64,000 nt of DNA. It comes from Escherichia phage SKA64. The notes below the pieces were generated by a model. That model was not told where the DNA came from. It saw only the letters and a program-made list of their open reading frames with translations, and searched no databases. Both the position numbers and the translations under genes were made by a program. The stretch lies in sequence record OM362897.1; one strand, given 5' to 3'. Positions 789 through 32,040 of the stretch are shown here, piece after piece (position 1 is the stretch's first letter; each line of letters starts with the position of its first letter).

Positions 789-794
789 TACTTT

Positions 795-1181: not shown

Positions 1182-1195
1182 GTTGTGTCTCTCTT

Positions 1196-1300
1196 TTAGC
1201 CGATACCGTGGGAAGATAGGATCATGTTAGCCATAGTTGCAACCACTCCAACCGATAACGCCAGGCCCACTACTACGACCGTGAAAATTTTCTCTAACAT
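1196..1300 (-). CDS. small hydrophobic peptide (34 aa, MLEKIFTVVVVGLALSVGVV...)
   Basis: hand-translated; GAGGG RBS 8 nt before ATG; below ORF-track size cutoff. Confidence 0.35.
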   Translation of the reverse strand: MLEKIFTVVVVGLALSVGVVATMANMILSSHGIG

Positions 1301-1318
1301 GATTCTACCCTCATTAAT

Positions 1319-1342
1319 GGGCGTTGCCTTATTGCCCCGCCC
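1319..1342 (-). promoter_or_regulatory. PeSL-like 5' leader stem-loop (variant)
   Basis: GGGCG...CGCCC inverted repeat preceded on minus strand by TTGACA-N16-TAGAAT. Confidence 0.4.
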
Positions 1343-1381
1343 TACGAAATACATTCTACCCGATTTATAATTGTTGTCAAA

Positions 1382-1651
1382 TTATTTTTTCAAGCTTGAC
1401 CACTCAAAACACGGGGCGATCTCGTTAAAACTTGTGCCCTGTAAAGCACATAATTTTTTAGCAATAGCCGCCGTGACCTGGCGCTGTACGCGCGGATCTG
1501 CTACTGATTGGAGAAAGTAGGCGGCTTTATATGTGATCATGCTTTCACCTGTTTCCTTGTTAACATGATGCACTATTTTAGCCTTATCATCTTTTACCAG
1601 GATGTAACCGGATTCGATGGCCTTGATTGCAACGTCTAATGATATTTTCAT
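1382..1651 (-). CDS. hypothetical protein (89 aa)
   Basis: ORF track; AAGAGG RBS. Confidence 0.6.
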   Translation of the reverse strand: MKISLDVAIKAIESGYILVKDDKAKIVHHVNKETGESMITYKAAYFLQSVADPRVQRQVTAAIAKKLCALQGTSFNEIAPCFEWSSLKK

Positions 1652-1670
1652 GATTTACCTCTTTATTGAC

Positions 1671-1691
1671 GGCGGGGAATACTCCCCCGCC
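1671..1691 (-). promoter_or_regulatory. PeSL-like 5' leader stem-loop
   Basis: GGCGGGG-AATACT-CCCCGCC hairpin upstream of ATG at 1651. Confidence 0.5.
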
Positions 1692-1698
1692 TCATTAA

Positions 1699-1869
1699 TT
1701 ATTCTTCATCGTCGCCGTTATAGTATTCAATGCCATTTTCATCGGTTACGGTGATGTTAACGCCACCGATAGCAACACGATCACGGGCAAACGTCATAGC
1801 TTCATTTAAATCTTCAGACCAAAAAATATTGTGACCTTTGCGCGATACATAAAACATAGTCGGGATCAT
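1699..1869 (-). CDS. hypothetical protein (56 aa)
   Basis: track ORF 1699..1953 trimmed to internal ATG (1867-1869) because the 5' extension translates the leader hairpin; AGAAGAGAAA RBS-like. Confidence 0.5.
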   Translation of the reverse strand: MIPTMFYVSRKGHNIFWSEDLNEAMTFARDRVAIGGVNITVTDENGIEYYNGDDEE

Positions 1870-1890
1870 GATTTGTTTCTCTTCTGTTGT

Positions 1891-1914
1891 GAGCGGTGGA
1901 CCATTCCGCCGCTC
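1891..1914 (-). promoter_or_regulatory. PeSL-like 5' leader stem-loop
   Basis: GAGCGGTGG-ACCATT-CCGCCGCTC hairpin. Confidence 0.5.
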
Positions 1915-1954
1915 TATGTAATAAACTTTACTACGTTGTTTGCCTACTGTCAAA

Positions 1955-2239
1955 TTATTTTTTAATGTTTTGCCCTACAAAATTGATCACTTCCTTAAGC
2001 TGTCTCTCTGTCATGATCGTACCTGGTAACTCTTCTTTAATTTCTTCTGGTAAATAGATATTACCGCGCCAGGTTAACAAACAACCGTTTTGATCTTCGC
2101 AGATAGAATAAGAAAACATCCACTCGCAATCATTCTCAAGCTCCCAAAAACACAAAAAGTCTTCTTTCCCTAAGTTTTCAACGGTTAAGCATAATCCGCG
2201 ACGTGCTGCATAATTAGTTAGGCTTTTTGTAATTTTCAT
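1955..2239 (-). CDS. hypothetical protein (94 aa)
   Basis: track ORF trimmed to ATG at 2237-2239 (upstream extension translates hairpin). Confidence 0.5.
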   Translation of the reverse strand: MKITKSLTNYAARRGLCLTVENLGKEDFLCFWELENDCEWMFSYSICEDQNGCLLTWRGNIYLPEEIKEELPGTIMTERQLKEVINFVGQNIKK

Positions 2240-2260
2240 GATTTTTCTCTCTTCTTGTGA

Positions 2261-2276
2261 GCGGCACCATTGCCGC
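2261..2276 (-). promoter_or_regulatory. PeSL-like 5' leader stem-loop
   Basis: GCGGC-ACCATT-GCCGC hairpin. Confidence 0.55.
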
Positions 2277-2288
2277 CCTACAAGATAC

Positions 2289-2316
2289 ATATTATCAGAC
2301 TACGCGGACTTGTCAA
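2289..2316 (-). promoter_or_regulatory. sigma70-like promoter (minus strand)
   Basis: minus-strand TTGACA-N16-TAATAT. Confidence 0.55.
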
Positions 2317-2317
2317 A

Positions 2318-2428
2318 CTATTTTTTCTTTTTCTTTGCTTCCAACCGTCTAAGGTTACGGCTTGACTTATTGCGCAAGGCGCTTAGATCGTCGTACCCTT
2401 TCCATGCTTGCATATCTTTCGGATTCAT
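2318..2428 (-). CDS. small lysine-rich basic peptide (36 aa, ends KKKKK)
   Basis: AAGGGGG RBS 5 nt before ATG; C-terminal part of track ORF 2318..2590. Confidence 0.35.
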   Translation of the reverse strand: MNPKDMQAWKGYDDLSALRNKSSRNLRRLEAKKKKK

Positions 2429-2438
2429 GTTATCCCCC

Positions 2439-2717
2439 TTAACGATTATAAACATTATGGATGGCTTCAAAGGCAAGATGACCATAAGCCGCCAAATCGG
2501 GATTGATCCAAGCGTTATCCAACATCGTTTCAAGGACTGTGGAATCATCGTATAAAGCATCATAGAAATCTGCACGGATGATCGTTTCAATGTCGTCCGG
2601 TGTTAGTTTGTCGTTCAACTTGCACACTGTTTCAACGTCAACACCAATTTTCCAATTTTGTAAATTAGTGGTTAACATTGTTTTCATTTCTTCGGTTGTT
2701 AATTTAACGATGGTCAT
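2439..2717 (-). CDS. hypothetical protein (92 aa)
   Basis: ORF track; AAGAGAGAAA RBS-like; own promoter-hairpin cassette. Confidence 0.6.
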   Translation of the reverse strand: MTIVKLTTEEMKTMLTTNLQNWKIGVDVETVCKLNDKLTPDDIETIIRADFYDALYDDSTVLETMLDNAWINPDLAAYGHLAFEAIHNVYNR

Positions 2718-2738
2718 GATTTTTTCTCTCTTCTGTTA

Positions 2739-2760
2739 GGCGGGGCGCTTGTCGCCCCTA
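2739..2760 (-). promoter_or_regulatory. PeSL-like 5' leader stem-loop
   Basis: GGGGCG-CTTGT-CGCCCC hairpin. Confidence 0.55.
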
Positions 2761-2768
2761 TGTGATAC

Positions 2769-2796
2769 ATCTTATCAGGTTGATTCAGCTTGTCAA
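2769..2796 (-). promoter_or_regulatory. sigma70-like promoter (minus strand)
   Basis: minus-strand TTGACA-N16-TAAGAT. Confidence 0.55.
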
Positions 2797-2797
2797 A

Positions 2798-2959
2798 CTA
2801 TTTGTTAGCCGGATTATATGCCAGGACCGCGCCGCTTGCTTTCACACTTTCCGCTTCATAGTTGCGCAGATCGTTTTCTGTAAGATTGAGCGCGATCACT
2901 TCCTCGACTTCAACGCCAGCGACAAGGGCGATCTCTTTGATAATGTCTGTTATTTTCAT
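2798..2959 (-). CDS. hypothetical protein (53 aa)
   Basis: track ORF trimmed to ATG at 2957-2959 with AAGGTG RBS. Confidence 0.5.
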   Translation of the reverse strand: MKITDIIKEIALVAGVEVEEVIALNLTENDLRNYEAESVKASGAVLAYNPANK

Positions 2960-2969
2960 GGTGTGCACC

Positions 2970-3089
2970 TTATAAGATGATTGATAAGATAGTGACAACG
3001 AAAGCGATTATACTGATGGCAAATGTCATCTTTTTACCTTCGGATACTGCCGGATTCTCTACCGTGTATTCTACTGTGTACTTGCTCAT
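2970..3089 (-). CDS. small membrane peptide (39 aa, ...FAISIIAFVVTILSIIL)
   Basis: hand-translated; GAGAGGA RBS; stop overlaps RBS of next gene; paralogous to 7448..7552. Confidence 0.45.
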   Translation of the reverse strand: MSKYTVEYTVENPAVSEGKKMTFAISIIAFVVTILSIIL

Positions 3090-3112
3090 CGTGTAATCCT
3101 CTCGTTTGCTTT

Positions 3113-3125
3113 GGGAACTATTCCC
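3113..3125 (-). promoter_or_regulatory. PeSL-like 5' leader stem-loop
   Basis: GGGAA-CTA-TTCCC hairpin; minus-strand TTGCAA-N16-TATATT upstream. Confidence 0.45.
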
Positions 3126-3186
3126 GCCGCCCTATGAATTAAATATACACTATCTCAAAATGATTGCAAGCCTTTTTCTAAATTAT

Positions 3187-3471
3187 TTATGCAGTAAACA
3201 AACCATCATTTACAACGGCGGCGATGATCTCCCGTGCCATTGATTCAGGGAAAGGGGCGCTATAGTCCTGGCTTGTCTCATCGGTATCAGTGATCCAATG
3301 ATAAGCTAACGAGTAAAAGCCTTTACTAACTGTTTTCAGTGAGATGATGATCACTCGGTCAAGCTTATTGGTGAATGTTGCCGTTAATGTGTTACCATCC
3401 TGCGTCATGTTGGACAAGTAAGCGGGATCATTAATCAGGGAAAACATTAGCACGGTGTTAGCTTTACTCAT
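3187..3471 (-). CDS. hypothetical protein (94 aa)
   Basis: track ORF 3187..3501 trimmed to ATG at 3469-3471 (GAGGA RBS); extension overlaps hairpin. Confidence 0.5.
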   Translation of the reverse strand: MSKANTVLMFSLINDPAYLSNMTQDGNTLTATFTNKLDRVIIISLKTVSKGFYSLAYHWITDTDETSQDYSAPFPESMAREIIAAVVNDGLFTA

Positions 3472-3490
3472 GATTGCATCCTCAAAGGGG

Positions 3491-3508
3491 CGCGGCACCA
3501 TTGCCGCC
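3491..3508 (-). promoter_or_regulatory. PeSL-like 5' leader stem-loop
   Basis: GCGGC-ACCATT-GCCGC hairpin. Confidence 0.55.
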
Positions 3509-3518
3509 CTACACGATA

Positions 3519-3546
3519 ACTATAACACAATATAAAACAGGATCAA
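3519..3546 (-). promoter_or_regulatory. sigma70-like promoter (minus strand)
   Basis: minus-strand TTGATC-N16-TATAGT. Confidence 0.5.
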
Positions 3547-3749
3547 CCTTTATTTTTCCACGGTGTCAGCTTGTTAATCATTGGTGATAAATAGCGTTTA
3601 CCAACGTAAAACAGCACGCCAACTGATGCAACGGCGGCGATCTCATGCATAGCCGACGGGAAACGGGTATCATAATAAGATCCAATAATAGCAATAGCGG
3701 CAACGGCTGCAACGTCGATAATGATTTTTTCTTGTTTTGCGGTGATCAT
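3543..3749 (-). CDS. small membrane protein (68 aa)
   Basis: track ORF trimmed to ATG at 3747-3749; hydrophobic stretches AAVAAIAIIG and AAVASVGVLFYVG. Confidence 0.5.
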   Translation of the reverse strand: MITAKQEKIIIDVAAVAAIAIIGSYYDTRFPSAMHEIAAVASVGVLFYVGKRYLSPMINKLTPWKNKG

Positions 3750-3771
3750 AATATTTACCTTTTTGTATGGT

Positions 3772-3788
3772 GGGGGAACTATTCCCCG
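3772..3788 (-). promoter_or_regulatory. PeSL-like 5' leader stem-loop
   Basis: GGGGAA-CTA-TTCCCC hairpin. Confidence 0.5.
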
Positions 3789-3835
3789 CCTGATGTAATA
3801 CAGTTTAACAGGTCCGGTTATGGTGTCAACCACTT

Positions 3836-4021
3836 TTAAAGATATTTTATACTGATAACGTTTTCCGGTTTAACCTTGTTGTGATGTGCATCAACATAGA
3901 TCAAACCATCGTCAGAAAAGCCCAGGATCACGCCCTGCGCGATAAAACCGTATTCGTCACGGTAACGCACGGCTATTTTTAATGTTGCGTTGTAGGCTGT
4001 TTTAAGCTCGTTTAAAGTCAT
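3836..4021 (-). CDS. hypothetical protein (61 aa)
   Basis: ORF track; GAGGA RBS. Confidence 0.55.
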   Translation of the reverse strand: MTLNELKTAYNATLKIAVRYRDEYGFIAQGVILGFSDDGLIYVDAHHNKVKPENVISIKYL

Positions 4022-4040
4022 TTTTGTTTATCCTCTACAT

Positions 4041-4069
4041 GTAAAAAGAAAGGGCGCTTGGTGCGCCCT
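4041..4069 (-). terminator. rho-independent terminator candidate (minus strand)
   Basis: AGGGCGC-TTGGT-GCGCCCT hairpin followed on minus strand by TTCTTTTTAC. Confidence 0.45.
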
Positions 4070-4076
4070 TGTTATG

Positions 4077-4223
4077 TTAATTCTCTAAATCCATCCAATT
4101 ATATTTGTCACTCTTCCCGCGCTTTGTTTTATTGCGCTTGTCGCCTTTGCGGATCACTTCCTCATTCCAGGCCTTGCGGATCTTGGAAGATTGAATTTTT
4201 TCTGCACGATTAGATGTATTCAT
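4077..4223 (-). CDS. small basic protein (48 aa, Lys/Arg-rich)
   Basis: hand-translated; AAAGAGGAAA RBS; followed by terminator-like hairpin. Confidence 0.4.
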   Translation of the reverse strand: MNTSNRAEKIQSSKIRKAWNEEVIRKGDKRNKTKRGKSDKYNWMDLEN

Positions 4224-4242
4224 TTTGTTTCCTCTTTATATG

Positions 4243-4260
4243 AGCGGCACCATTGCCGCT
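4243..4260 (-). promoter_or_regulatory. PeSL-like 5' leader stem-loop
   Basis: AGCGGC-ACCATT-GCCGCT hairpin; minus-strand TTGACA upstream at 4291-4296. Confidence 0.5.
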
Positions 4261-4302
4261 ATATTATTAATTTAAACTGTTTTGTAAAATTGTCAAGGTT
4301 TA

Positions 4303-4656
4303 TCATTCATAAGAGCAAGCAAGGATCACGCCTGCAATATAAAGCCAATAATTTTCCCTTTCTCGTTGGATTTTATCATCGCTGCTATTCTCTTTAATGT
4401 ATCCCCAGGATGTTAACAAGCGATCAATTTCCCAATATTCGAAAGCGATATTAATATCTGATGGCAAACCTTGTAACCATGATGCTATTGCTCTGATAAT
4501 GTTATGATCGTAACGTTTTTGGTTATCGGTATACCAATACTCGGATTTAAAACAGCGCATCAATTCCGCGATCTTCTCTTTATCTTCTGTGATGCCATAC
4601 TTGCTATAATCAATTGAGGCCAGAATATAAAGTTTAATTGCATTTTGTGCTTTCAT
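4303..4656 (-). CDS. hypothetical protein (117 aa)
   Basis: ORF track; AGAAGAGAGA RBS-like. Confidence 0.6.
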   Translation of the reverse strand: MKAQNAIKLYILASIDYSKYGITEDKEKIAELMRCFKSEYWYTDNQKRYDHNIIRAIASWLQGLPSDINIAFEYWEIDRLLTSWGYIKENSSDDKIQRERENYWLYIAGVILACSYE

Positions 4657-4677
4657 GGTGTCTCTCTTCTGTTGTTG

Positions 4678-4694
4678 GCGGCACCATTGCCGCC
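4678..4694 (-). promoter_or_regulatory. PeSL-like 5' leader stem-loop
   Basis: GGCGGC-ACCATT-GCCGCC hairpin. Confidence 0.55.
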
Positions 4695-4733
4695 CTACTT
4701 GTTACATCTTACTGGATTTTTAAAACTTGTCAA

Positions 4734-4955
4734 TCATTTTTCTACTATCATTTGATACCCTGTTTCAACGTTAGAAAACACTGTTATCCCGTCCTGGCGT
4801 TCACTCATTAACATACAAGGCGCTAACATCCTTTCTACTGCCTTGCACTCGTTGTAAACGGCGGTTATATCTCCTGCTGCCTTGTCTTCTGTAGTAAATG
4901 TCTCATTTACGTAAACTTGACCAGCGACAACGGCGACAATAGCGAAAGTGATCAT
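4734..4955 (-). CDS. hypothetical protein (73 aa, N-terminus MITFA)
   Basis: ORF track; AAGGAAA RBS; first 18 nt identical to start of 5029..5196. Confidence 0.55.
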   Translation of the reverse strand: MITFAIVAVVAGQVYVNETFTTEDKAAGDITAVYNECKAVERMLAPCMLMSERQDGITVFSNVETGYQMIVEK

Positions 4956-4989
4956 GATGTTTCCTTGTTAGTAGTGGTTTCTCTTCTCT

Positions 4990-5012
4990 ATAGCGCCCAT
5001 TATAGGCGCTAT
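4990..5012 (-). promoter_or_regulatory. leader stem-loop (variant)
   Basis: AGCGCC-CATTAT-AGGCGCT hairpin upstream of 4955. Confidence 0.4.
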
Positions 5013-5028
5013 AACGAAAAGTCAACTA

Positions 5029-5196
5029 TTATTTTTTAAGGCTTAAAGTGCCTAGCTTATCAGCGTGACGCAGACCAGGGAAGATCCATTTTCCTGATTC
5101 ATCTTTCACCGGGGCTTTAAAAGTAGCGCCCAGGTTGGCGGCGTTAACTTTACGTGCAACGTTGCGAGCGGCTTCACGGGTAGCGAAAGTGATCAT
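5029..5196 (-). CDS. hypothetical protein (55 aa, N-terminus MITFATREAA)
   Basis: hand-translated; GAGGAAAA RBS; below ORF-track cutoff. Confidence 0.45.
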   Translation of the reverse strand: MITFATREAARNVARKVNAANLGATFKAPVKDESGKWIFPGLRHADKLGTLSLKK

Positions 5197-5220
5197 GATA
5201 TTTTCCTCTTCTCTTTGTTA

Positions 5221-5242
5221 GGCGGTGGACCATTCCGCCGCC
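5221..5242 (-). promoter_or_regulatory. PeSL-like 5' leader stem-loop
   Basis: GGCGGTGG-ACCATT-CCGCCGCC hairpin. Confidence 0.5.
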
Positions 5243-5288
5243 TTGATGTAATACAGTTTACTTTATTTTTGCAGTATTGCAAGCGGTT

Positions 5289-5504
5289 TTATGAAATAAA
5301 TGTCAAAGTAAAATCATAATCTTTTGACAGTTTATATTGCACCTTGTTACCGTATATGTCACCTTTACGTAAAGATCCACGGATACCGATAACATCCTTC
5401 ACGTCTTTTAAATTTTTCACGCCTGTAATGTCTTTGTTGAAATACTCGTCATCTGAAAATAAAACTTGCTTTGCATTTTTTAACAAGGTGCGGATATTAG
5501 CCAT
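5289..5504 (-). CDS. hypothetical protein (71 aa)
   Basis: track ORF trimmed to ATG at 5502-5504. Confidence 0.5.
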   Translation of the reverse strand: MANIRTLLKNAKQVLFSDDEYFNKDITGVKNLKDVKDVIGIRGSLRKGDIYGNKVQYKLSKDYDFTLTFIS

Positions 5505-5525
5505 TTTGATAATCTCTCTTACTAG

Positions 5526-5545
5526 GGGCGGCAATAGTGCCGCCC
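5526..5545 (-). promoter_or_regulatory. PeSL-like 5' leader stem-loop
   Basis: GGGCGGC-AATAGT-GCCGCCC hairpin. Confidence 0.5.
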
Positions 5546-5591
5546 TATGAATTACATTTTACTAATTTTAGTTGTCTTGTCAATATTATTT

Positions 5592-5819
5592 TTAGTTTAA
5601 TTGATCCAGGCATAACAGACGATCAACGTTGAGATCGGTCAGGCTAATCGTTGGCACCTGGTAGGATTCGATGTACTCAACGCTCGACCATTGCCCAAAG
5701 TTAGCGACCGCCCAGCTATTCAATGAGGAGTGAAGATCATCCCCTTTCTTCTCGGTGATAACTGCTACTACCTGGGAGATTCCAACCGTGCCGGATACGC
5801 GAACAATAACGATAGCCAT
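5592..5819 (-). CDS. hypothetical protein (75 aa)
   Basis: ORF track; AAAGG RBS. Confidence 0.55.
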   Translation of the reverse strand: MAIVIVRVSGTVGISQVVAVITEKKGDDLHSSLNSWAVANFGQWSSVEYIESYQVPTISLTDLNVDRLLCLDQLN

Positions 5820-5841
5820 AATGATAACCTTTCTTTGATTT

Positions 5842-5862
5842 GGCGGGAAACCATTTCCCGCC
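5842..5862 (-). promoter_or_regulatory. PeSL-like 5' leader stem-loop
   Basis: GGCGGGAAA-CCA-TTTCCCGCC hairpin. Confidence 0.5.
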
Positions 5863-5910
5863 CTATGCGATAAACTACACCAGATTAAAAAACGTTGTCA
5901 ACTGCTTTTA

Positions 5911-6150
5911 TTACATTCCTACCATAGCGGCACGGATTGCAGTTTTACTATACTTGAAACCATCAGGTGTATGAGTGATTCCATCCTGTTTTAATCTGTA
6001 GCACATCAGATCCGCCGCTTTATCTTTATTGCCGCACTCATTTATTAAACCTACAGCGTATAAGTATAACGATTCATCATTATTAATCCAAAGGCTTACA
6101 TTCCAATGAGTTTTATTTTTGTGACCGTTGTACATTTTAGATTTAGCCAT
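5911..6150 (-). CDS. hypothetical protein (79 aa)
   Basis: ORF track. Confidence 0.55.
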   Translation of the reverse strand: MAKSKMYNGHKNKTHWNVSLWINNDESLYLYAVGLINECGNKDKAADLMCYRLKQDGITHTPDGFKYSKTAIRAAMVGM

Positions 6151-6171
6151 GATGTTAATCTCTTTTTCAGT

Positions 6172-6193
6172 GAGGCGGGAACTATTCCCGCTC
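6172..6193 (-). promoter_or_regulatory. PeSL-like 5' leader stem-loop
   Basis: GCGGGAA-CTA-TTCCCGC hairpin. Confidence 0.5.
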
Positions 6194-6238
6194 TCGATAT
6201 AAGTATTATATGCTTTTTATTCGTGCTGTCAATGCTTT

Positions 6239-6604
6239 TTATAAATCTTTTTTACGTTTTACATCGCTTGCATGACTGTATACAGCGATCCCATTATCAC
6301 GGCAAAAGCGGGAAAGGTAGGCATAATTTGAAAACTCTTTACCTTCCAGGTTGATAACCTTGCTAAACTCTTCTAGGGCGACGGTATCAAAATGATCACC
6401 ATAGCCATATTGAAACGGAACGTTAACCACCTCGATCAGTTTACCGCCGATCTCAACGTCAACCATTAAAGAAAAATATGTATTACCGTAGGACCGTTGA
6501 AACCAGCGACGGGCGCTAATATGCACCGCCTCAATGCTGGATAATTCAATTTTAGCCGTGTTAGCCAGGGTAGCATAAGCGGAAACATTAATATTAATAG
6601 CCAT
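6239..6604 (-). CDS. hypothetical protein (121 aa)
   Basis: track ORF; start moved to ATG at 6602-6604 which has AAAGG RBS. Confidence 0.5.
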   Translation of the reverse strand: MAININVSAYATLANTAKIELSSIEAVHISARRWFQRSYGNTYFSLMVDVEIGGKLIEVVNVPFQYGYGDHFDTVALEEFSKVINLEGKEFSNYAYLSRFCRDNGIAVYSHASDVKRKKDL

Positions 6605-6626
6605 GATGATAACCTTTTTCATTGTT

Positions 6627-6647
6627 GGCGGGAAACCACTTCCCGCC
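6627..6647 (-). promoter_or_regulatory. PeSL-like 5' leader stem-loop
   Basis: GGCGGGAA-ACCAC-TTCCCGCC hairpin. Confidence 0.5.
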
Positions 6648-6692
6648 CTATGTGGTAAACTATACTAGAATTTTAAACAATGTCAACCGTTT

Positions 6693-7055
6693 TTATTCGT
6701 AAATTTTACCGCTTTCAGCCCATACCATAACGCGGCGCATACTATCCCAAGTGTTTTGATCCAGGTTTAAGCCGTGCAACTCTTCGGTACTTTCCAGACC
6801 AGGTACCGCCTTGTTGTAAGTCGCATATAAGCGCCCTTGATACTCATACGCCAGAGTAAGATCCGTTTGAATCATCTTTTTAAGCATAGCATTAAGCATC
6901 ATATTAGCGGCATGTTGATCACGTTTTAGCGGTAACATATCAATAAAGGCGCGATAAGCTGAAACATGAATATCAACCGTTTCACGTGGTAAATTTTTCA
7001 TGTCATCGCGGAAAGATACCAGATTAAACATGATAGTATTGATTTGCTTGCTCAT
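6693..7055 (-). CDS. hypothetical protein (120 aa)
   Basis: track ORF trimmed to ATG at 7053-7055 with AAAGGG RBS. Confidence 0.5.
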   Translation of the reverse strand: MSKQINTIMFNLVSFRDDMKNLPRETVDIHVSAYRAFIDMLPLKRDQHAANMMLNAMLKKMIQTDLTLAYEYQGRLYATYNKAVPGLESTEELHGLNLDQNTWDSMRRVMVWAESGKIYE

Positions 7056-7076
7056 TGTGTTACCCTTTTTTGTTTT

Positions 7077-7098
7077 GGCGGGGAAGTATTCCACCGCC
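7077..7098 (-). promoter_or_regulatory. PeSL-like 5' leader stem-loop
   Basis: GGCGGGGAA-GTA-TTCCACCGCC hairpin. Confidence 0.5.
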
Positions 7099-7155
7099 CT
7101 ATGTGTTACATCTTATCAGATTAAAAAACGTTGTCAAGAATATTTTTAGATAATT

Positions 7156-7437
7156 TTAACTGTATGATCCACATCGTTCGCAGTAGTGATCATCGTCGTC
7201 ATCAGCTACCTGGCTGATAAAGTGATCTACTTTTGCTTTTAGGTTATTATAATTATTTTCTACTTCCTTTAATCGCTCCTGATAGTATCCCAGGGCTTCA
7301 ATATACGCCGCCTCTTCTGTTTTTTCACGCATGGCTAAATTCATGCCGCGCGTATCATCATACAGCCAAAAACCATCGGTGCACTCACTCATTGAAAGGG
7401 TAGGGCTTAACTCTTTATGATTAATTACCTTGCTCAT
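7156..7437 (-). CDS. hypothetical protein (93 aa, C-terminal CERCGSYS)
   Basis: track ORF trimmed to ATG at 7435-7437 with AAGG RBS. Confidence 0.5.
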   Translation of the reverse strand: MSKVINHKELSPTLSMSECTDGFWLYDDTRGMNLAMREKTEEAAYIEALGYYQERLKEVENNYNNLKAKVDHFISQVADDDDDHYCERCGSYS

Positions 7438-7447
7438 AGTGTGCGCC

Positions 7448-7552
7448 TTATAGAATGATTGAAACAACAATTGCTACAGTGATCCACACTGGAACGGCTA
7501 ACAAAATAGCGTTAATCGTTCCAACCGTCAAACTATTTTCTTTATTAATCAT
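7448..7552 (-). CDS. small membrane peptide (34 aa, ...VWITVAIVVSIIL)
   Basis: hand-translated; AGAGG RBS; paralog of 2970..3089 with the same downstream junction. Confidence 0.45.
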   Translation of the reverse strand: MINKENSLTVGTINAILLAVPVWITVAIVVSIIL

Positions 7553-7579
7553 TGTAAGCCTCTTGCATAATTTCACTAT

Positions 7580-7599
7580 GAGCGGCACCATTGCCGCCC
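7580..7599 (-). promoter_or_regulatory. PeSL-like 5' leader stem-loop
   Basis: GCGGC-ACCATT-GCCGC hairpin. Confidence 0.55.
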
Positions 7600-7634
7600 T
7601 ACGTGGTAAATATTATGCCAGTGGCGGCGATATG

Positions 7635-8192
7635 TCAAAGACTATTTTCAAAGTTTTCTAGTGCGATCCTTTTTTCTTCCTCTGTTGGCTGATAATCAGG
7701 AAAAGCATCAACACACAACAACGGCGGGATCTCTTCGTACTCTTCCTCTTCCGTTGTCTCCTCGTCTTCCTCCTGGGCTATGGCTGCAATTTTGGCTAAT
7801 TTTCTTTCAGCTTGAATCAATTTACCATCAAGTACGTTTTTTGCCATATTGTAAGCGGTCCAGGTTATGCGCTTACTTTCTAATGCTTCCTCAAGCGCCG
7901 CTATCTTGCTGGGGTATTCATCCAGGACACGAAAAGCCGGATCAACTTTGTACAAAGGATTATCTTTCGCGCCGTCGCTCGCATCTTCCGCACTGGATAA
8001 ATCAGCGTTACCATTTGCCAGCCAGCCAGGGCGCACATAACGCGCTTTTACGTTGCCGTTACTACGTGCTAATCTGTTACCTATTTGCTCACCGCTATAT
8101 CCCGTGGATTCATCGATAAGATGATCGGTAATGATGCGCGGATCATCTGCTTCATGTTTTACCCAAGACTGGATCACATATTCGCGGCCCAT
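7635..8192 (-). CDS. hypothetical acidic protein (185 aa)
   Basis: ORF track; start set to ATG at 8190-8192 (AAGGTGG RBS 5 nt upstream); Glu/Asp-rich C-terminal region. Confidence 0.55.
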   Translation of the reverse strand: MGREYVIQSWVKHEADDPRIITDHLIDESTGYSGEQIGNRLARSNGNVKARYVRPGWLANGNADLSSAEDASDGAKDNPLYKVDPAFRVLDEYPSKIAALEEALESKRITWTAYNMAKNVLDGKLIQAERKLAKIAAIAQEEDEETTEEEEYEEIPPLLCVDAFPDYQPTEEEKRIALENFENSL

Positions 8193-8193
8193 A

Positions 8194-8451
8194 TTAACCA
8201 CCTTTTTTCAACAATTGGCATACTTTAAAAAGACTTGCTGAATCCTTGCAAGGGTAGAAAGATGTACGATAGTCACGTACGCCAACCTTGCGGATCTCGA
8301 TGTTCTCGCATGTTGTTTGATCAAAGATATTTATTTCATCATGCCCCCTTATATAAACATAGTGGGGATGTATTAACGCATATTTTGCTAATCTGTAAAA
8401 AGCGTTATCTTTGAACGCGATCACGTGACCTTTTAATTTGATGTAAAACAT
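8194..8451 (-). CDS. hypothetical protein (85 aa)
   Basis: ORF track; AAGGTGG RBS. Confidence 0.6.
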   Translation of the reverse strand: MFYIKLKGHVIAFKDNAFYRLAKYALIHPHYVYIRGHDEINIFDQTTCENIEIRKVGVRDYRTSFYPCKDSASLFKVCQLLKKGG

Positions 8452-8468
8452 TCTACCACCTTACAAAT

Positions 8469-8487
8469 AGCGGGAACTATTCCCGCT
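8469..8487 (-). promoter_or_regulatory. PeSL-like 5' leader stem-loop
   Basis: AGCGGGAA-CTA-TTCCCGCT hairpin. Confidence 0.5.
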
Positions 8488-8527
8488 TTATGTAACATAT
8501 TAACAAATTATTCGTTAATGTCAAGCC

Positions 8528-8800
8528 TTAAAGCAAAAACGCTACATCTTGCGCTTTTAGTGTAGTATCAACCATTTTCGGGCTTTTATAATCAACAAAG
8601 CGCGCGGTTTTTTCAATAGCGAAACCGAGATAATCTTGTTTATTGAATTTACATTCTTTCTTAAATGTTTCCCGCGCCACGGTGATCGCTGCGTCCAGGG
8701 ATAAACGCCCGTCAATGTTGATATTTGCGAAAGATCCGCCACCGCTCATAGGTTTACCAGTGGTGCCAGTTACGATCATTGTTGCGCTATATGATGCCAT
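8528..8800 (-). CDS. hypothetical protein (90 aa)
   Basis: ORF track; AAGAGAGAAA RBS-like. Confidence 0.55.
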   Translation of the reverse strand: MASYSATMIVTGTTGKPMSGGGSFANINIDGRLSLDAAITVARETFKKECKFNKQDYLGFAIEKTARFVDYKSPKMVDTTLKAQDVAFLL

Positions 8801-8821
8801 GATGATTTCTCTCTTCTGTTA

Positions 8822-8842
8822 GGCGGGGCGCTTGTCGCCCCT
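8822..8842 (-). promoter_or_regulatory. PeSL-like 5' leader stem-loop
   Basis: GGGGCG-CTTGT-CGCCCC hairpin, near-identical to copy at 2739-2760. Confidence 0.55.
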
Positions 8843-8884
8843 ATGTGATACATCTTATCAGGTTGTGGCTTGTTGTCAAGACTT

Positions 8885-9082
8885 TTATTCTATTCCTGCA
8901 ATCTGCTTAACGCGCTTGCATTTTGCAGTATGCTGATCTTCTGTAATTACTCCCATTTCTAACAGTGAATCAATGAAAGATAAAACCGTTTCATGATCAT
9001 CTTGGGGATGACTGAACTCAGTAAAACCGTTTACTATTACGTTGATTTGTCCAGCTTTCGCCACAATGTGCAATGTTGCCAT
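8885..9082 (-). CDS. hypothetical protein (65 aa)
   Basis: track ORF trimmed to ATG at 9080-9082 with GGAG RBS. Confidence 0.5.
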   Translation of the reverse strand: MATLHIVAKAGQINVIVNGFTEFSHPQDDHETVLSFIDSLLEMGVITEDQHTAKCKRVKQIAGIE

Positions 9083-9101
9083 GATCTTAACTCCAAATAG
9101 T

Positions 9102-9121
9102 GAGCGGCACCATTGCCGCCC
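9102..9121 (-). promoter_or_regulatory. PeSL-like 5' leader stem-loop
   Basis: GCGGC-ACCATT-GCCGC hairpin; minus-strand TTGACG-N17-TAATAT upstream. Confidence 0.55.
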
Positions 9122-9268
9122 TACGTGGTAAATATTATGCCGCCACCTGGCGAACGTCAACCACTTTTTCAATCTTTTTATTTTCTTTTTGCTTGCTATA
9201 TATAAAGGAAAGGGCTATCATCTTTCTACCGCGCCAACCAGGGCGCACAACAAAGAAAGGGCGACACC

Positions 9269-16719: not shown

Positions 16720-17148
16720 ATGCAAAACATGACTTGGACCGAAGCTAAAGAAGCGATGCAGAATGGCAAACGTGTGAAGCACGAATACTTCTGTAGTGAT
16801 GAGTGGTTTGAGATGCAATACGGTGTTATTCTGGATGAGCATGGCTACAATATGTCAAACTGGTTCCGAGGGGAAGCTTGGCAAGAACAGGGTTGGTTTG
16901 TAATTGAAAAAGAAGACAGTAAGGAAGAAGGCGTGTTGTCTAATGTAGAACGCGAGATGAGGGAAACAAAGATACCTGCTTTGGATTTTGTATACCTGGA
17001 AGAACTTGTGGCAGCATCTTTTGTAGCAGGAAACCTTTGGAATACACCTGTTAGCCGACTGGAGAACCAAAATAACCCGTCTGCTCGTAATCACAAGCTT
17101 TATAAGGGTAAAGGTCACAACAAATTAAAGAAAGGAAAGAAGAAATGA
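16720..17148 (+). CDS. DUF2829-like protein (Tad2-like candidate) with basic C-terminal tail
   Basis: N-terminus MTWTEAKEAMQNGKRVKHEYF and GEAWQEQGWFVIEK resemble DUF2829 pattern; ends KLKKGKKK. Confidence 0.4.
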   Translation: MQNMTWTEAKEAMQNGKRVKHEYFCSDEWFEMQYGVILDEHGYNMSNWFRGEAWQEQGWFVIEKEDSKEEGVLSNVEREMRETKIPALDFVYLEELVAASFVAGNLWNTPVSRLENQNNPSARNHKLYKGKGHNKLKKGKKK

Positions 17149-17294
17149 TCTACAAAAACAAGTTCACTGGTTGTCTCCGTAAATTTATCGATAAGAAAGG
17201 GTTTGTTTCTCTTGACAAGGGTGTTACGTGGGTGCAAAATGGCACTTCAGAACAACTGATCAAGGCTTTACCTTACTATGAGGAGGTTTTATGA
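17145..17294 (+). CDS. hypothetical protein (49 aa)
   Basis: hand-translated; AAAGGAAAGAAGAA RBS; ATGA overlaps at both ends. Confidence 0.4.
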   Translation: MIYKNKFTGCLRKFIDKKGFVSLDKGVTWVQNGTSEQLIKALPYYEEVL

Positions 17295-17551
17295 CACTTT
17301 ATCACGTAACTACAGAAGGCGACTGTGAAGGCCGCACTACAAAAGATTTGGGGTATGTTGAAGCAGATTCACCTGAACATGCTATCAAATACCTGCATTC
17401 CATCGGGAAGTATGCGGGTTATGAGTATACTATCTACGAGGTTGAAATTATTAACCTTATACAAGTGGCAACTCCTATGGCAGAGTTGAAACATCTTAAG
17501 GCAAAAGTAAGACCTGGTGTAGTGTCCGATTACAAAGGGGAAGTAAAGTGA
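17291..17551 (+). CDS. hypothetical protein (86 aa)
   Basis: ORF track; GAGGAGG RBS. Confidence 0.6.
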   Translation: MTLYHVTTEGDCEGRTTKDLGYVEADSPEHAIKYLHSIGKYAGYEYTIYEVEIINLIQVATPMAELKHLKAKVRPGVVSDYKGEVK

Positions 17552-17760
17552 GTGGATGGATTAAAGTATCTGGTACCGAGAATGTTCCTATCGGAGAGTG
17601 GCTTGTAATCATGGCAAACGGCAAGAAGGGATTCTGTGAAGTTAACAAAACACGCAATGGCACGATAGCTGTTATCAATGGTCATTTTTATTTTGACTTG
17701 GCACCTGTGATCGCATACCATGCACTACCAACATATGAAGAGGAGATTAACAATGGCTAA
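17548..17760 (+). CDS. hypothetical protein (70 aa)
   Basis: ORF track; start overlaps upstream stop. Confidence 0.55.
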   Translation: MSGWIKVSGTENVPIGEWLVIMANGKKGFCEVNKTRNGTIAVINGHFYFDLAPVIAYHALPTYEEEINNG

Positions 17761-18076
17761 CAAAGAACCACACGTATATACTGCACTGGTAAAGCACTTG
17801 AACAAAGAACGTAACAGGATCATTGCAGATTATCGTAAATTTAAACGTAGTAGTCTAAATCGTAAATACATGCCACATGCAGCTTTTGACGCTACACGTG
17901 CAGTATTTCGTGCAAAGATTGCGGAAATGGATAATCTGCTTAAGCTTGCACGATTATCTATTCAGGCATCCAAAGTAACAGGGGTCACTCACTTCTTTGA
18001 CTTCGATACTAAAGCACTATATGCACCAGAAGCAGGTGAACAATTGATTTATCTACTTACCAAAAATAAGTGTTGA
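17753..18076 (+). CDS. hypothetical protein (107 aa)
   Basis: track ORF trimmed to ATG at 17753 with GAGGAG RBS. Confidence 0.55.
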   Translation: MANKEPHVYTALVKHLNKERNRIIADYRKFKRSSLNRKYMPHAAFDATRAVFRAKIAEMDNLLKLARLSIQASKVTGVTHFFDFDTKALYAPEAGEQLIYLLTKNKC

Positions 18077-18148
18077 CTTTTTTCAAAAAATATGCTACCC
18101 TAACCCCGAAGGGTCGAGCGATAGCGAGTATAGATTATGTAATAGATT

Positions 18149-18228
18149 AATCTCTATCGTTAGATGTTCGAAGAATAGAGATTTAAGTACTTGTTCTTAT
18201 CGGTAGATGATCGTAAGATCAAGAACAA
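18149..18228 (+). promoter_or_regulatory. tandem pair of stem-loops with conserved loop core TAGATG
   Basis: AATCTCTAT-N17-ATAGAGATT (18149-18183) and TTGTTCTT-N22-AAGAACAA (18191-18228). Confidence 0.4.
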
Positions 18229-18245
18229 TAATAGGAGAGTATGTT

Positions 18246-18443
18246 ATGTTAGTCAGTGAAATACTACCTGACTCTAATGGTAATCAGATCACTGTTGATT
18301 GGTTTCCTGGTACTGGTACACTAGATCTAACTGCTGAATGGTCTGGTGATATTTATGGAGAAGGTGTATTATCATTGTCTACAGAACAAATGATCATCCT
18401 TCGTGACTTCTTAATTAGTTTAGATCTAGGAGAAAACAAATGA
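18246..18443 (+). CDS. hypothetical protein (65 aa)
   Basis: track ORF trimmed to ATG at 18246 with AGGAGAG RBS. Confidence 0.5.
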   Translation: MLVSEILPDSNGNQITVDWFPGTGTLDLTAEWSGDIYGEGVLSLSTEQMIILRDFLISLDLGENK

Positions 18444-18709
18444 GTAAAACTTCTGTTGAGTTTATCGAGAAATCCCCTGTTCCAAAGTTATACCGTTTAT
18501 CTGAAATTGAACCTATGTCTGTTTTCTACTACTACGATTCAGAAGTAAGTGAACAAGAACGGGACTACTACTTAGCTACAGATACAGGTGCAGTGTGCTT
18601 AACAGGTTCTCGTGCAGGAGAATACATTGTGACTAGTCGTTTTAATGAAGCAGATTACTGTTGGGCTAAGGTTGAAACTAAGATTGTCATCAACATCACT
18701 AATCATTAA
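18440..18709 (+). CDS. hypothetical protein (89 aa)
   Basis: ORF track; GGAGAAAACAA RBS. Confidence 0.6.
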   Translation: MSKTSVEFIEKSPVPKLYRLSEIEPMSVFYYYDSEVSEQERDYYLATDTGAVCLTGSRAGEYIVTSRFNEADYCWAKVETKIVINITNH

Positions 18710-18731
18710 GACTAATCTGACAAAGAGTTAC

Positions 18732-18761
18732 TTGACATGTGCAAAGCTCTTTGTGTAGAAT
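18732..18761 (+). promoter_or_regulatory. sigma70-like promoter embedded in inverted repeat
   Basis: TTGACA-N18-TAGAAT; ACAAAGAG...CTCTTTGT inverted repeat spans the -35. Confidence 0.55.
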
Positions 18762-18791
18762 AAAGATTCACTTACTAAGGAGATTTTATAA

Positions 18792-18989
18792 ATGGCTACA
18801 AAGAAACAGAAAATGAAATGTCTTACTCTCACTGAACTGGGTCAAGCTTCCAACTGCGTTACTGTTGGTAAGATTTATTCTACAGTTCTTGATAAAGACA
18901 ACAACAGTTTTACTTTCAAAGATGATAACGGAAACCCTCAAGTTGGAATCTACCCTTCCTGTGCTTTTGGTACTTGGGAAAAAGTGTAA
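18792..18989 (+). CDS. hypothetical protein (65 aa)
   Basis: ORF track; TAAGGAG RBS. Confidence 0.6.
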   Translation: MATKKQKMKCLTLTELGQASNCVTVGKIYSTVLDKDNNSFTFKDDNGNPQVGIYPSCAFGTWEKV

Positions 18990-19032
18990 CTAATTAGAGG
19001 GTATACTTGTAAACAAGATTAAGGAGGCATTT

Positions 19033-19206
19033 ATGGGAGATAAACAAAGTAACATCCGTTACGCGCTTTATGGAAGAATGGGTGCAGATTGTGAATGGAT
19101 GCTTCTGTCGCAACGTATACCCTCTTACAAAGAGGCTCTTGAAAAAAGAGACTATTATAAACAAACATGGCGTTTTGTCATTTGTAAACACTATTTGGAG
19201 GCGTGA
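19033..19206 (+). CDS. hypothetical protein (57 aa)
   Basis: hand-translated; TAAGGAGG RBS; preferred over track ORF 19070..19294. Confidence 0.45.
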   Translation: MGDKQSNIRYALYGRMGADCEWMLLSQRIPSYKEALEKRDYYKQTWRFVICKHYLEA

Positions 19207-19514
19207 TGAGTACATTATCATTAGCAGTTACGGTGCACCAGTATTACGAAGAAGCTGTAAAAGATTCAGAAAACCCATCTACATTAGTATTTGAAGATCG
19301 GACTGGTCTTAAATGGGTAGAATATGGGGATGAACTCTACTTTTGGTATCCACAAGGTTGCACAAGTAATTCTAATTTGTATAGTTATGAACTGGAGTAT
19401 CGTGCGCCTGTAGACGAAGATGACAATTACATCATGTATTATGTTAATAATGGTTGCGGTGAAACGTTTAATGTAGTATTCTCTAAAGCCTTGAAGTCCG
19501 ACGAGGAGATGTAA
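19206..19514 (+). CDS. hypothetical protein, paralog A (102 aa)
   Basis: ORF track (ATG at 19206); tandem paralog of next gene (TLSLAV...YEL(E)YRAP..DD.(Y/F)IM). Confidence 0.6.
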   Translation: MSTLSLAVTVHQYYEEAVKDSENPSTLVFEDRTGLKWVEYGDELYFWYPQGCTSNSNLYSYELEYRAPVDEDDNYIMYYVNNGCGETFNVVFSKALKSDEEM

Positions 19515-30278: not shown

Positions 30279-30752
30279 ATGCTTAAAATGAAAACAGGTA
30301 ATCTTATTGATGCCGCTAAAGCAGGTGAAGTAACTGTTATTGCTCATTGTTGCAATTGTATGTGTAATATGGGGGCAGGTATTGCCCCACAAATCAAACG
30401 AGCATTTCCTTACGCATATGCAGCAGACTTAGACACAATGGCTGGTGATCAAAGTAAACTAGGTTGTTTTAGTTTAGGGGTGCCAGACGAACAATCAGAT
30501 CCTTTGGTATATAATCTATACGGGCAGTATCGTTATGGATACAATGCTAAAGGTCGTCAGTTGGACTATGATGCACTTTACGATGCACTAATAGCTATGG
30601 CTAACGATTTGCTTCTCCGTGACCAAAAATGTAAGATCGGCTTACCTATGATTGGCGCTGGATATGCTGGAGGTAATTGGGCTATCATCCAAGTGATGAT
30701 TGAAGAAACTTTAGTAAAAACAGGTCACGATGTGACTATTTATAAACTTTAA
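30279..30752 (+). CDS. macro-domain protein (ADP-ribose binding/processing)
   Basis: start at ATG 30279 after TAAGGAG; N-terminal segment NLIDAAKAGEVTVIAHCCNCMCNMGAGIAPQI and C-terminal LPMIGAGYAGGNW resemble macro-domain signatures. Confidence 0.5.
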   Translation: MLKMKTGNLIDAAKAGEVTVIAHCCNCMCNMGAGIAPQIKRAFPYAYAADLDTMAGDQSKLGCFSLGVPDEQSDPLVYNLYGQYRYGYNAKGRQLDYDALYDALIAMANDLLLRDQKCKIGLPMIGAGYAGGNWAIIQVMIEETLVKTGHDVTIYKL

Positions 30753-30764
30753 GAGGAGATTAGT

Positions 30765-30989: not shown

Positions 30990-31017
30990 TTGACATAGTT
31001 CTTAAAAAGAGTAAGAT
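30990..31017 (+). promoter_or_regulatory. sigma70-like promoter
   Basis: TTGACA-N16-TAAGAT. Confidence 0.6.
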
Positions 31018-31029
31018 ATATCACATGAA

Positions 31030-31048
31030 GCGGGGAATAGTTCCCCGC
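31030..31048 (+). promoter_or_regulatory. PeSL-like 5' leader stem-loop (only plus-strand copy)
   Basis: GCGGGGAA-TAG-TTCCCCGC between promoter and AGAGGAGAAAAG RBS. Confidence 0.55.
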
Positions 31049-31065
31049 AAAGAGAGGAGAAAAGA

Positions 31066-32040
31066 ATGCAACTTGGTTTCCCCATTATTGATGTAGTTGT
31101 TTTAGTTGGTATTTTAGCATTGTCTATTGGTATCGATTTCTTTGGTCACAAAGAAAATAAAGAAATTTCATTCAAATCCGCAGTTGATTGGTCGATCTTT
31201 TGGATTGGTGTATCATTAGCTTATTATGGTTTTGTATACTTCCAACATGGTGCCGATTTTGCTAACTTGTTTTTAAGTGGATATGTGTTGGAAAAATCTT
31301 TGTCGGTAGATAACTTAGTAGTATTTGTAGCAGTATTCGCAAGTTTTGGTATTAAAAGCACACACTTGCAGCACAAGATTCTACTTTGGGGTATTGCAGG
31401 TGCGATTGTCTTCCGAGGTGTGTTTGTAGCAGTAGGCACTTACTTGTTAAGTTTGGGCTGGTATGTTAATATCTTCTTCGGTGCGGTCATCCTTTTCTGT
31501 GCAGCTAAAATGGTATTTGCTGGAGATAATGACGCAGAAGTTGATTACTCTAAACACTGGGCTACCCGTATTGTTCGTAAACTGTTCCCTGTATCTAATA
31601 AAATGGATGGGGAGAAGTTCTTCACAATCGAAAATGGTGTTCGTGTAGCAACTCCAGCTTTGGTTTGCGTATTCGTGATGGAAATGGTGGATGTAATCTT
31701 TGCAGTAGATTCGGTTCCAGCGGTGATCGCAGTGACACAAGAACCCCTACTTGTATTCTCTTCGATGTTATGTGCAATCTTAGGTCTACGTGCTCTGTTC
31801 TTTGTTCTTAGTGTCGCACTGAAGTATCTGGTTCACTTGGAGAAAGCAGTTATTGTGGTTCTGGTGTTTGTAGGCGTTAAACTGATGTATCACCCGTTTG
31901 CAGAAACATTGCATGAGAAAATGAGTTTCCTGCCAGCACATATTGATCCAACTATTAGTATGTATATCGTGCTTGGTACTTTGGCCCTTGGTGTTATTGC
32001 AAGCTTTATCTTCCCTGAAAAAGAAGAAGCTACTATTTAA
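31066..32040 (+). CDS. TerC/Alx-family integral membrane protein
   Basis: multi-pass membrane protein; LSGYVLEKSLSVDNLVVFVAVF and FGAVILFCAAKMVFAGD blocks resemble TerC/Alx family. Confidence 0.8.
   Translation: MQLGFPIIDVVVLVGILALSIGIDFFGHKENKEISFKSAVDWSIFWIGVSLAYYGFVYFQHGADFANLFLSGYVLEKSLSVDNLVVFVAVFASFGIKSTHLQHKILLWGIAGAIVFRGVFVAVGTYLLSLGWYVNIFFGAVILFCAAKMVFAGDNDAEVDYSKHWATRIVRKLFPVSNKMDGEKFFTIENGVRVATPALVCVFVMEMVDVIFAVDSVPAVIAVTQEPLLVFSSMLCAILGLRALFFVLSVALKYLVHLEKAVIVVLVFVGVKLMYHPFAETLHEKMSFLPAHIDPTISMYIVLGTLALGVIASFIFPEKEEATI

Follow-up and report, generated by a model that had tools for sequence, protein, structure and literature searches.

The question raised by positions 18149-18228 of the window – by which we mean the whole 64-kb stretch of DNA analysed here – is whether the two small, adjacent hairpins found there are a maintained element and, if so, at which level and to what effect they act. 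An earlier note on this DNA had described a tandem pair of stem-loops with different stems and a conserved loop, and had proposed that in the mRNA they could be RNase III-type processing sites or a protein-binding translational operator. The pair is present as described, with different stems and a shared core, in a gap of 169 nt between two genes; how the core is paired, and which of the proposed roles is plausible, are the subject of what follows.

The phage and the locus

The window comes from a Phapecoctavirus (phAPEC8-like, Stephanstirmvirinae), 99.4% identical to phage tuntematon over positions 17000-19500 – an interval to which 125 phage records can be matched. Many of these relatives carry an extra 324-nt gene, ASO2A_244 (L001 1793-2116), which is missing from the window (at ~17294) and from tuntematon, and it is because of this gene that their BLAST matches come in two pieces.

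The intergenic gap extends from the stop codon of the upstream gene (18074-18076) to the ATG (18246-18248, plus strand) of a 65-aa gene (18246..18443). The genes flanking the hairpin site are all small ORFs on the plus strand, and all belong to PHROGs of unknown function, while further on the transcription unit runs into a UvrD-type helicase and an anaerobic ribonucleotide reductase. The Shine–Dalgarno (SD) sequence of the 65-aa gene, AGGAGAG (18233-18239, plus strand), begins 4 nt past hairpin 2 and is placed in an 8-nt loop in MFE folds.

A predicted promoter and a conserved leader module

At the upstream end of the gap, a -35 hexamer, TTGACT (18073-18078, plus strand), overlaps the TGA stop of the upstream gene and is followed, after a 17-nt spacer, by the extended -10 element TGcTACCCT (18093-18101, plus strand). 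Together they make up a predicted sigma-70-like extended -10 promoter, whose activity we infer from the sequence; it escaped a consensus scan because TACCCT matches only three of the six positions of TATAAT. Adjoining the putative transcription start is a small hairpin, CCC-GAA-GGG (18105-18113), and then come the leader motif CGAGCGATAGCGAG (18115-18128), which is complementary to the core of hairpin 1, and two direct copies of ATAGATTA (18130-18149), all on the plus strand. The two hairpins lie ~40-120 nt downstream of the predicted promoter.

Promoter and short hairpin, followed by the motif CGAGCGAUAGCGAG, form a module that recurs across the Stephanstirmvirinae. We aligned 10 copies from Phapecoctavirus, Justusliebigvirus and Klebsiella-type phages, representing four lineages, and found TT.AC in the -35 hexamer, ATGnTACCCTA around the -10 element and CGAGCG in the leader motif to be invariant in all of them. 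The consensus reads TTGACT-17-TGnTACCCTA, a short variable hairpin and CGAGCG-(1-3 nt)-(A/U)GCGAG, with short hairpins of different sequence standing at the position of CCC-GAA-GGG in the other copies. The leader motif may itself form a mini-hairpin, GAGC-loop-GCGAG, with GAUA, GGGA, GAA, GCA or GAAU as the loop.

Each Phapecoctavirus genome has three copies of the module, one of them in the window (18073-18128), and the hairpin pair follows this copy only. The second copy, at 141.3 kb (L037 1523-1590), sits in a 360-bp gap and is opposed to its neighbours; it may represent an origin or specify an sRNA or antisense RNA. The third, at 102.7 kb (L038 ~30655-30762, minus strand), lies in a divergent gap before two small ORFs and a tRNA cluster. 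It is followed (L038 ~30430-30730; tuntematon 102.4-102.7 kb, minus strand) by about 10 repeats containing GTAC – a tetranucleotide that is 3.6-fold under-represented genome-wide, with 148 occurrences observed and 534 expected – and by a pure A/T block of ~40 nt flanked by TAGAT and ATCTA. This third intergenic region looks origin-like.

Two Y-shaped hairpins around a shared, paired core

Read on the plus strand, both hairpins fold into Y-shaped three-way junctions. Hairpin 1 (18149-18183) has the stem AATCTCT(AT)/(AT)AGAGATT; its outer stem P1 (18149-55/18177-83) pairs AAUCUCU with AGAGAUU, and enclosed by it stand the mini-hairpins P2 (18156-58/18163-65), AUC-GUUA-GAU with the loop GTTA in DNA, and P3 (18166-69/18173-76), GUUC-GAA-GAAU with the loop GAA. 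Hairpin 2 (18191-18228), with the stem TTGTTCTT/AAGAACAA, follows the same plan: P1 (18191-98/18221-28) pairs UUGUUCUU with AAGAACAA, P2 (18199-201/18206-08) is AUC-GGUA-GAU (loop GGTA in DNA) and P3 (18209-12/18217-20) is GAUC-GUAA-GAUC (loop GTAA in DNA). They are joined by a variable 7-nt linker, TAAGTAC (18184-18190), in which BI-EHEC, KKP3954 and the phiWec lineage have substitutions.

Each element thus has an outer stem of 7-8 bp, a mini-hairpin AUC-GNUA-GAU and a second mini-hairpin of 4 bp, with no unpaired bases at the junction. The P1 stems of the two are wholly different and P3 flips U-A to A-U, with the fold unchanged. Of the conserved loop claimed earlier, the sharing stands – the cores are TCGTTAGATGTTCG at 18157-18170 and TCGGTAGATGATCG at 18200-18213 – but the open loop does not, as the core is paired into AUC-GNUA-GAU and the second mini-hairpin.

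The Y fold is the RNAfold MFE structure for hairpin 2 of the window folded alone, with only the terminal P1 pair open, as it is for hairpin 2 of phiWec and for hairpin 1 of the majority allele (C at 18176); it is also the RNAalifold consensus for hairpin 2. At -6 to -9 kcal/mol, with two G-C pairs in each P1, the hairpins are weak. On its own, hairpin 2 folds with z = -3.05 (2 of 200 shuffles as good) and hairpin 1 with z = -1.65 (13 of 200), and the pair folded together reaches z = -2.67. Nor is the shape rare, since a strict Y-junction descriptor matches seven times in the 150-kb genome and ~11 times in shuffles; hairpins 1 and 2 are, however, the only adjacent and the only motif-sharing matches among these.

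The sequence is more distinctive. As a direct repeat, the two elements share 74% identity over 27 nt and are spaced 43 nt apart, and in the 64-kb window TCGKTAGATGWTCG, with 2 mismatches allowed, matches the two shared cores and nothing else. Searches for further copies of the hairpin motif gave none in the window, one chance match in a coding region of the 150-kb genome, none in the E. coli genomes searched and, in scans of IMG/VR and metagenomes, only the two alleles discussed below, besides chance matches. Four copies of TAGAT (18131, 18143, 18161, 18204) are also found on the plus strand within 78 nt, a run unique on either strand of the 150-kb genome and due in part to two local duplications, those of ATAGATTA and of the hairpin pair. 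A cluster of Dam sites was considered and rejected, as the genome shows no avoidance of GATC and has many closely spaced GATC pairs (36).

Pairing is conserved between alleles

Seventy phage records contain the hairpin pair, always as a single copy per genome: 64 are at least 96% identical and six ~89% (the phiWec179/181/188/190 group and PsgM04F). Three metagenome contigs and one contig from IMG/VR have the same two alleles. That the hairpins are so similar is not in itself evidence of selection, because the block formed by hairpins and downstream gene is better conserved than the gene upstream: between the window and phiWec190, the downstream protein is ~85% identical and the upstream protein 41%. 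A search of IMG/VR with the upstream protein gave no relatives.

More telling is where the alleles differ. In the phiWec lineage, P1 of hairpin 1 has two compensatory pairs (A-U to G-C and C-G to U-A) and the small promoter-proximal hairpin has one (its middle pair, C-G to A-U). At 18176, in P3 of hairpin 1, the window has G.U where the majority allele has G-C, and in P3 of hairpin 2 of KKP3954 a C-G has become U.G. The other differences comprise a U insertion placed exactly at the P2/P3 junction, changes in the P2 loop (G to U in hairpin 2 of the phiWec allele, U to C in hairpin 1 of 536P1) and several changes in the linker. Over eight distinct sequences, 99.2% of stem cells are paired, compared with 35-51% when the partners are slid, and the only loss of pairing concerns the terminal pair of hairpin-2 P1. 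The stem changes in these eight sequences number three double-sided and two wobble; the compensatory ones derive from a single lineage split, and independent events are few.

Judged by this pattern of substitutions, the two hairpins are real and evolutionarily maintained, and the comparative pairing data are stronger evidence for them than the folding statistics. The pattern also bears out the earlier placement of their action in the mRNA, as the strand-specific G-C/G.U changes and the compensatory pairs point to plus-strand leader RNA: read on the minus strand, either wobble change would leave an A.C mismatch.

A competing long-range fold

Hairpin 1 has a competitor within the same leader. 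Two segments of the leader motif (18114-20 and 18122-27) can pair with the hairpin-1 core (18165-71 and 18157-62, respectively), the complementarity amounting to 13 pairs, three of which are G.U. The resulting fold (18114-18171) is an irregular helix whose 19 bp fall into three segments; enclosed within it is a small hairpin (18132-37/18148-53), where AGATTA of the direct repeat (18132-18137) can pair with TAATCT (18148-18153). Taken alone, it has an energy of -18 kcal/mol and z = -2.85. In the RNAfold ensemble of the full leader (18104-18250), the long helix has a probability of ~0.95 and P1 of hairpin 1 of ~0.01, and hairpin 2 is preferred in a shifted register.

In these models, the long helix and hairpin 1 are mutually exclusive. 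The long helix, too, is an RNAalifold consensus; no covariation support for it was found among the alleles, and some of its pairs are lost in phiWec and 536P1. Comparative data thus favour the Y-form hairpins and thermodynamics favours the rival fold, and both may be in use. One could go further and regard the hairpin pair together with the CGAGCG..AGCGAG leader motif as a conformational RNA switch, in which a factor bound to the motif would free the hairpin-1 core and so let the Y fold form; we consider such a switch doubtful, with odds well against it.

Relatives at the same position

In more distant relatives, structured elements of other kinds occupy the same place. The Klebsiella phages phi1_175008 and FKP3 and one IMG/VR contig have a single hairpin there, made up of a 14-bp stem, then a tandem GA/GA internal loop and, at the top, the apex CUAUC-GUUA-GAUAG. 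It folds with 21 stacked pairs at -29.6 kcal/mol and is followed by UUUUCUUUU and then the SD; by position, its apex is the homologue of P2 of hairpin 1. On the Logan contig L050, the hairpin shape is kept through compensatory changes (z = -5.99), with the apex CACUC-GUA-GAGUG, and both the P2 sequence and the U-tract are absent. In Justusliebigvirus muut (L005 1262-1342), an unrelated irregular hairpin of ~31 bp (z = -3.9) pairs GUAUUCUC with GGAGAAUAC and is predicted to sequester the SD; a small hydrophobic protein is the product of the gene that follows. What is conserved among these relatives is a structured element just 5′ of the SD, but neither its sequence nor its shape.

The gene behind the hairpins is also exchangeable. 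In phiWec181, PsgM04F and two environmental contigs (L007 and L041), a 178-aa gene comes directly after hairpin 2, in place of the 65-aa gene; phiWec190 has both. The deletion junction in phiWec181 and PsgM04F (L002 1280-1300, as against L003 1280-1500) falls at the SD (GAGGAG), so that the next gene inherits the leader. As the first gene after hairpin 2 has been swapped in some phages, an operator dedicated to the 65-aa gene – the more specific form of the translational operator put forward in the earlier note – is unlikely, although the hairpins may possibly bind some factor.

Several simpler identities can be set aside. Rfam gave no match at gathering thresholds in the whole window, and only chance-level matches (E > 2) at 18040-18300, which suggests that the hairpin pair belongs to no described RNA family. 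A tRNA, a tmRNA or a tRNA remnant was rejected because ARAGORN finds none in the window, and a rho-independent terminator because G-C pairs are few and neither hairpin is followed by a U-tract; the terminator reading is weakened even for the Klebsiella homologue, as the U-tract is found in only some Klebsiella-type relatives and L050 lacks it. A leader peptide was rejected in that the mini-ORF at 18164 has four codons in the window and ~30 in the majority allele, and its ATG is lost in phiWec, and so was an N-terminal extension of the downstream protein from the in-frame ATG at 18207, which in phiWec is followed by a stop. Sequestration of the SD by the 5′ arm of hairpin 1 can be drawn, but is not predicted in the window-type leader.

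What the hairpins may do

Whichever gene comes first, the hairpins stand between the predicted promoter and the SD. Our preferred reading, to which we would assign a probability of about 0.4, is that they are the structured part of the long 5′ leader of a promoter/stem-loop/SD cassette and affect processing, stability or ribosome access. Host sigma-70 RNA polymerase would initiate near 18108 and produce an unusually long leader of ~138 nt at the head of a delayed-early operon comprising small ORFs, the helicase and the reductase, and read-through RNA from the upstream unit would cover the site as well. The RNA would then fold into two paralogous, cis-acting three-way junctions of Y shape, with 4 nt left between them and the SD; they may keep the untranslated leader compact, leave the SD and AUG exposed and insulated from upstream sequence, and set the processing or degradation of the leader. 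Alternatively, hairpin 1 would pair with the invariant 5′ leader motif, giving two mutually exclusive leader folds. We infer where transcription starts, and likewise any effect on stability, processing or ribosome access. Being weak and internal, the hairpins would make poor classical 5′- or 3′-end stabilisers.

The strict identity of P2 between the two units is a hint that a specific sequence, and not just a generic structure, is recognised, and the pair could be a tandem platform for a trans-acting RNA-binding factor of phage or host origin, with a protein on AUC-GNUA-GAU controlling the operon through translation, decay or antitermination. The tandem spacing of 43 nt, the persistence of P2 within unrelated P1 stems, the variation of its loop at positions 2 and 3 only (GUUA, GGUA, GUCA) and the presence of CUAUCGUUAGAU at the apex of the single hairpin in phi1_175008 and FKP3 are all in keeping with this. 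We nevertheless regard it as unlikely, for L050 retains the shape of the apex and not its sequence, the Justusliebigvirus hairpin is unrelated, no candidate binding protein was found among the flanking genes, all of them in PHROGs of unknown function, and the motif is found in no comparable context elsewhere in the genome. Cleavage by host RNase III, which would part upstream early RNA from the operon and set its stability or translation, has precedents in phage early leaders – T7 R0.3 and the other T7 R sites, and the lambda N leader – where, as here, an early promoter is followed by a long leader, an irregular hairpin and the first gene. The E. coli enzyme normally requires about two helical turns (~20 bp), however, and the earlier suggestion of RNase III sites is not supported for the hairpins as drawn, with helices of only 7-8 bp and 3-4 bp; hairpin 2 is part of no long helix at all. 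In size, the enzyme would suit the 19-bp rival fold, whose z-score of -2.85 speaks in its favour, and the hairpins that relatives have in the same place (21 stacked pairs in the Klebsiella type and ~31 bp in muut), but the 19-bp fold is the one without covariation support that is weakened in phiWec and 536P1, and we rate processing by RNase III as quite unlikely.

A terminator or attenuator of the PeSL type, stopping or damping transcription from the upstream immediate-early unit and from the cassette's own promoter, has in its favour that the ASO2A annotation calls hairpin 2 a rho-independent terminator (a WebGeSTer prediction), that the Klebsiella-type hairpin precedes UUUUCUUUU, and that PeSL stem-loops of T4-type phages terminate efficiently in reporter assays (PMC2839356). 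Here, though, the hairpins are flanked by UAAGUAC and UAAUAGG rather than U-tracts, each P1 has just two G-C pairs, the L050 homologue is without a U-tract, and the consensus scan lists no terminator-like site on the plus strand in 18077-18245, all of which makes termination improbable. Equally improbable, in our estimate, is that the pair has no function of its own and is a local duplication persisting in a block recently exchanged together with the downstream gene. The sharp drop in identity from the downstream to the upstream protein of phiWec190 would fit such an exchange, as would the occurrence of just two alleles in all collections searched, but pairing survives all six stem substitutions, changes are found mainly in linkers and loops, and three diverged lineages retain a structured hairpin here. 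The substitutions bear equally on a DNA-level reading, in which two operator- or iteron-like sites TATC-N4-GAT, 43 bp or ~4 helical turns apart, would be occupied by a DNA-binding protein and serve as a roadblock, in looping or in an origin function. The near-palindromic Klebsiella version CTATC-GTTA-GATAG, the singular run of TAGAT copies on one strand and the repeats and A/T block adjoining another copy of the promoter–leader module would agree with it; a duplex-DNA site, however, would need neither covarying outer stems nor strand-specific wobble changes, and L050 keeps the hairpin shape while losing the half-site sequence, so that we give this reading very little credence.

Comparison with known systems

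For the preferred reading – a structured leader within a promoter/stem-loop/SD cassette – the closest analogues are the PeSL cassettes of T4-type phages, in which strong sigma-70-like promoters are combined with stem-loops that terminate transcription, and which mediate gene shuffling (Arbiol et al. 2010, PMC2839356; Comeau et al. 2014, PMC4122927). The phage has close counterparts of its own: about 18 near-identical cassettes stand before small early ORFs (788-9160 on the minus strand, 30990-31066 on the plus strand), in the order TTGACA-17-TAAGAT, CATAG, GGCGGnAAnnGnnCCGCC, A-rich spacer, SD and ATG, with a G/C-rich hairpin (GGCGGnAA..CCGCC) that is followed by a U-tract in none of them. In the ASO2A annotation, many units run from promoter through 'terminator' to CDS, and hairpin 2 of the present site is included among these. 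By their sequence features, the ~18 cassettes resemble the T4-type PeSL, including the presence of many near-identical copies beside ORFans, which would serve as recombination points.

The hairpin site itself can be likened to a PeSL by the stem-loop located between the predicted promoter and SD/start codon, the small early ORFs, and a gene content beside the cassette that differs between close relatives. It may also correspond in having a sigma-70-like promoter with A/T-rich sequence upstream, the candidate here showing an upstream TG but a -10 hexamer with only three matches out of six. It departs from PeSL in several respects: the phage belongs to another subfamily, the Stephanstirmvirinae; the leader is ~4 times longer; A/U-rich Y-junctions take the place of G/C-rich hairpins; the pair occurs once per genome, unlike the repeated PeSL; terminator features are absent; and the gene-swap junction of phiWec181 falls at the SD and not within the hairpins. 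We read the site, which acts as RNA, as the stem-loop part of an atypical, long-leader PeSL-like cassette, with the same tentative confidence as the leader function proposed above.

Other systems offer partial parallels. The RNase III sites of phage early leaders are likewise irregular hairpins between an early promoter and the first cistron, conserved among relatives, but their ~20-bp helix is missing here, except in the rival fold and in the single hairpins of relatives. The antitermination RNAs HK022 put and lambda nut lie shortly downstream of early promoters, and put consists of two adjacent stem-loops; the cis-acting RNA signal proposed here would similarly lie near an early promoter, and in each genome several transcription units begin with the promoter–leader module. 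Neither in sequence nor in Rfam was a similarity to put or nut found, however, and only one of the three leaders has the hairpin pair. With ompA-type stabilisers, the site shares a structured untranslated leader before the SD, but 5′-UTR stem-loops of that type must occupy the extreme 5′ end, whereas the present hairpins are 40-120 nt inside the leader and thermodynamically weak.

Implications

There is almost no work on regulation in phAPEC8- and phi92-like phages, the large coliphages employed in phage therapy, and in the literature we found no transcriptome, promoter or RNA-end study of this genus. The site is a compact, testable cis-element – ~80 nt, with two alleles and clear stem mutations – at the entry to an operon of DNA-metabolism genes, whose control by the element is proposed here. 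Were both competing folds to prove real, the site would offer a natural and simple case of a leader switch in a virulent phage; otherwise, it would be one more structured leader in a promoter/stem-loop cassette. Should the switch involving the leader motif exist, the module found three times per genome would amount to an undescribed control signal of the Stephanstirmvirinae, one that could act in an antitermination-like, priming or sRNA-like manner. The site also points to a conserved promoter–leader module that marks three special transcription starts in each genome.
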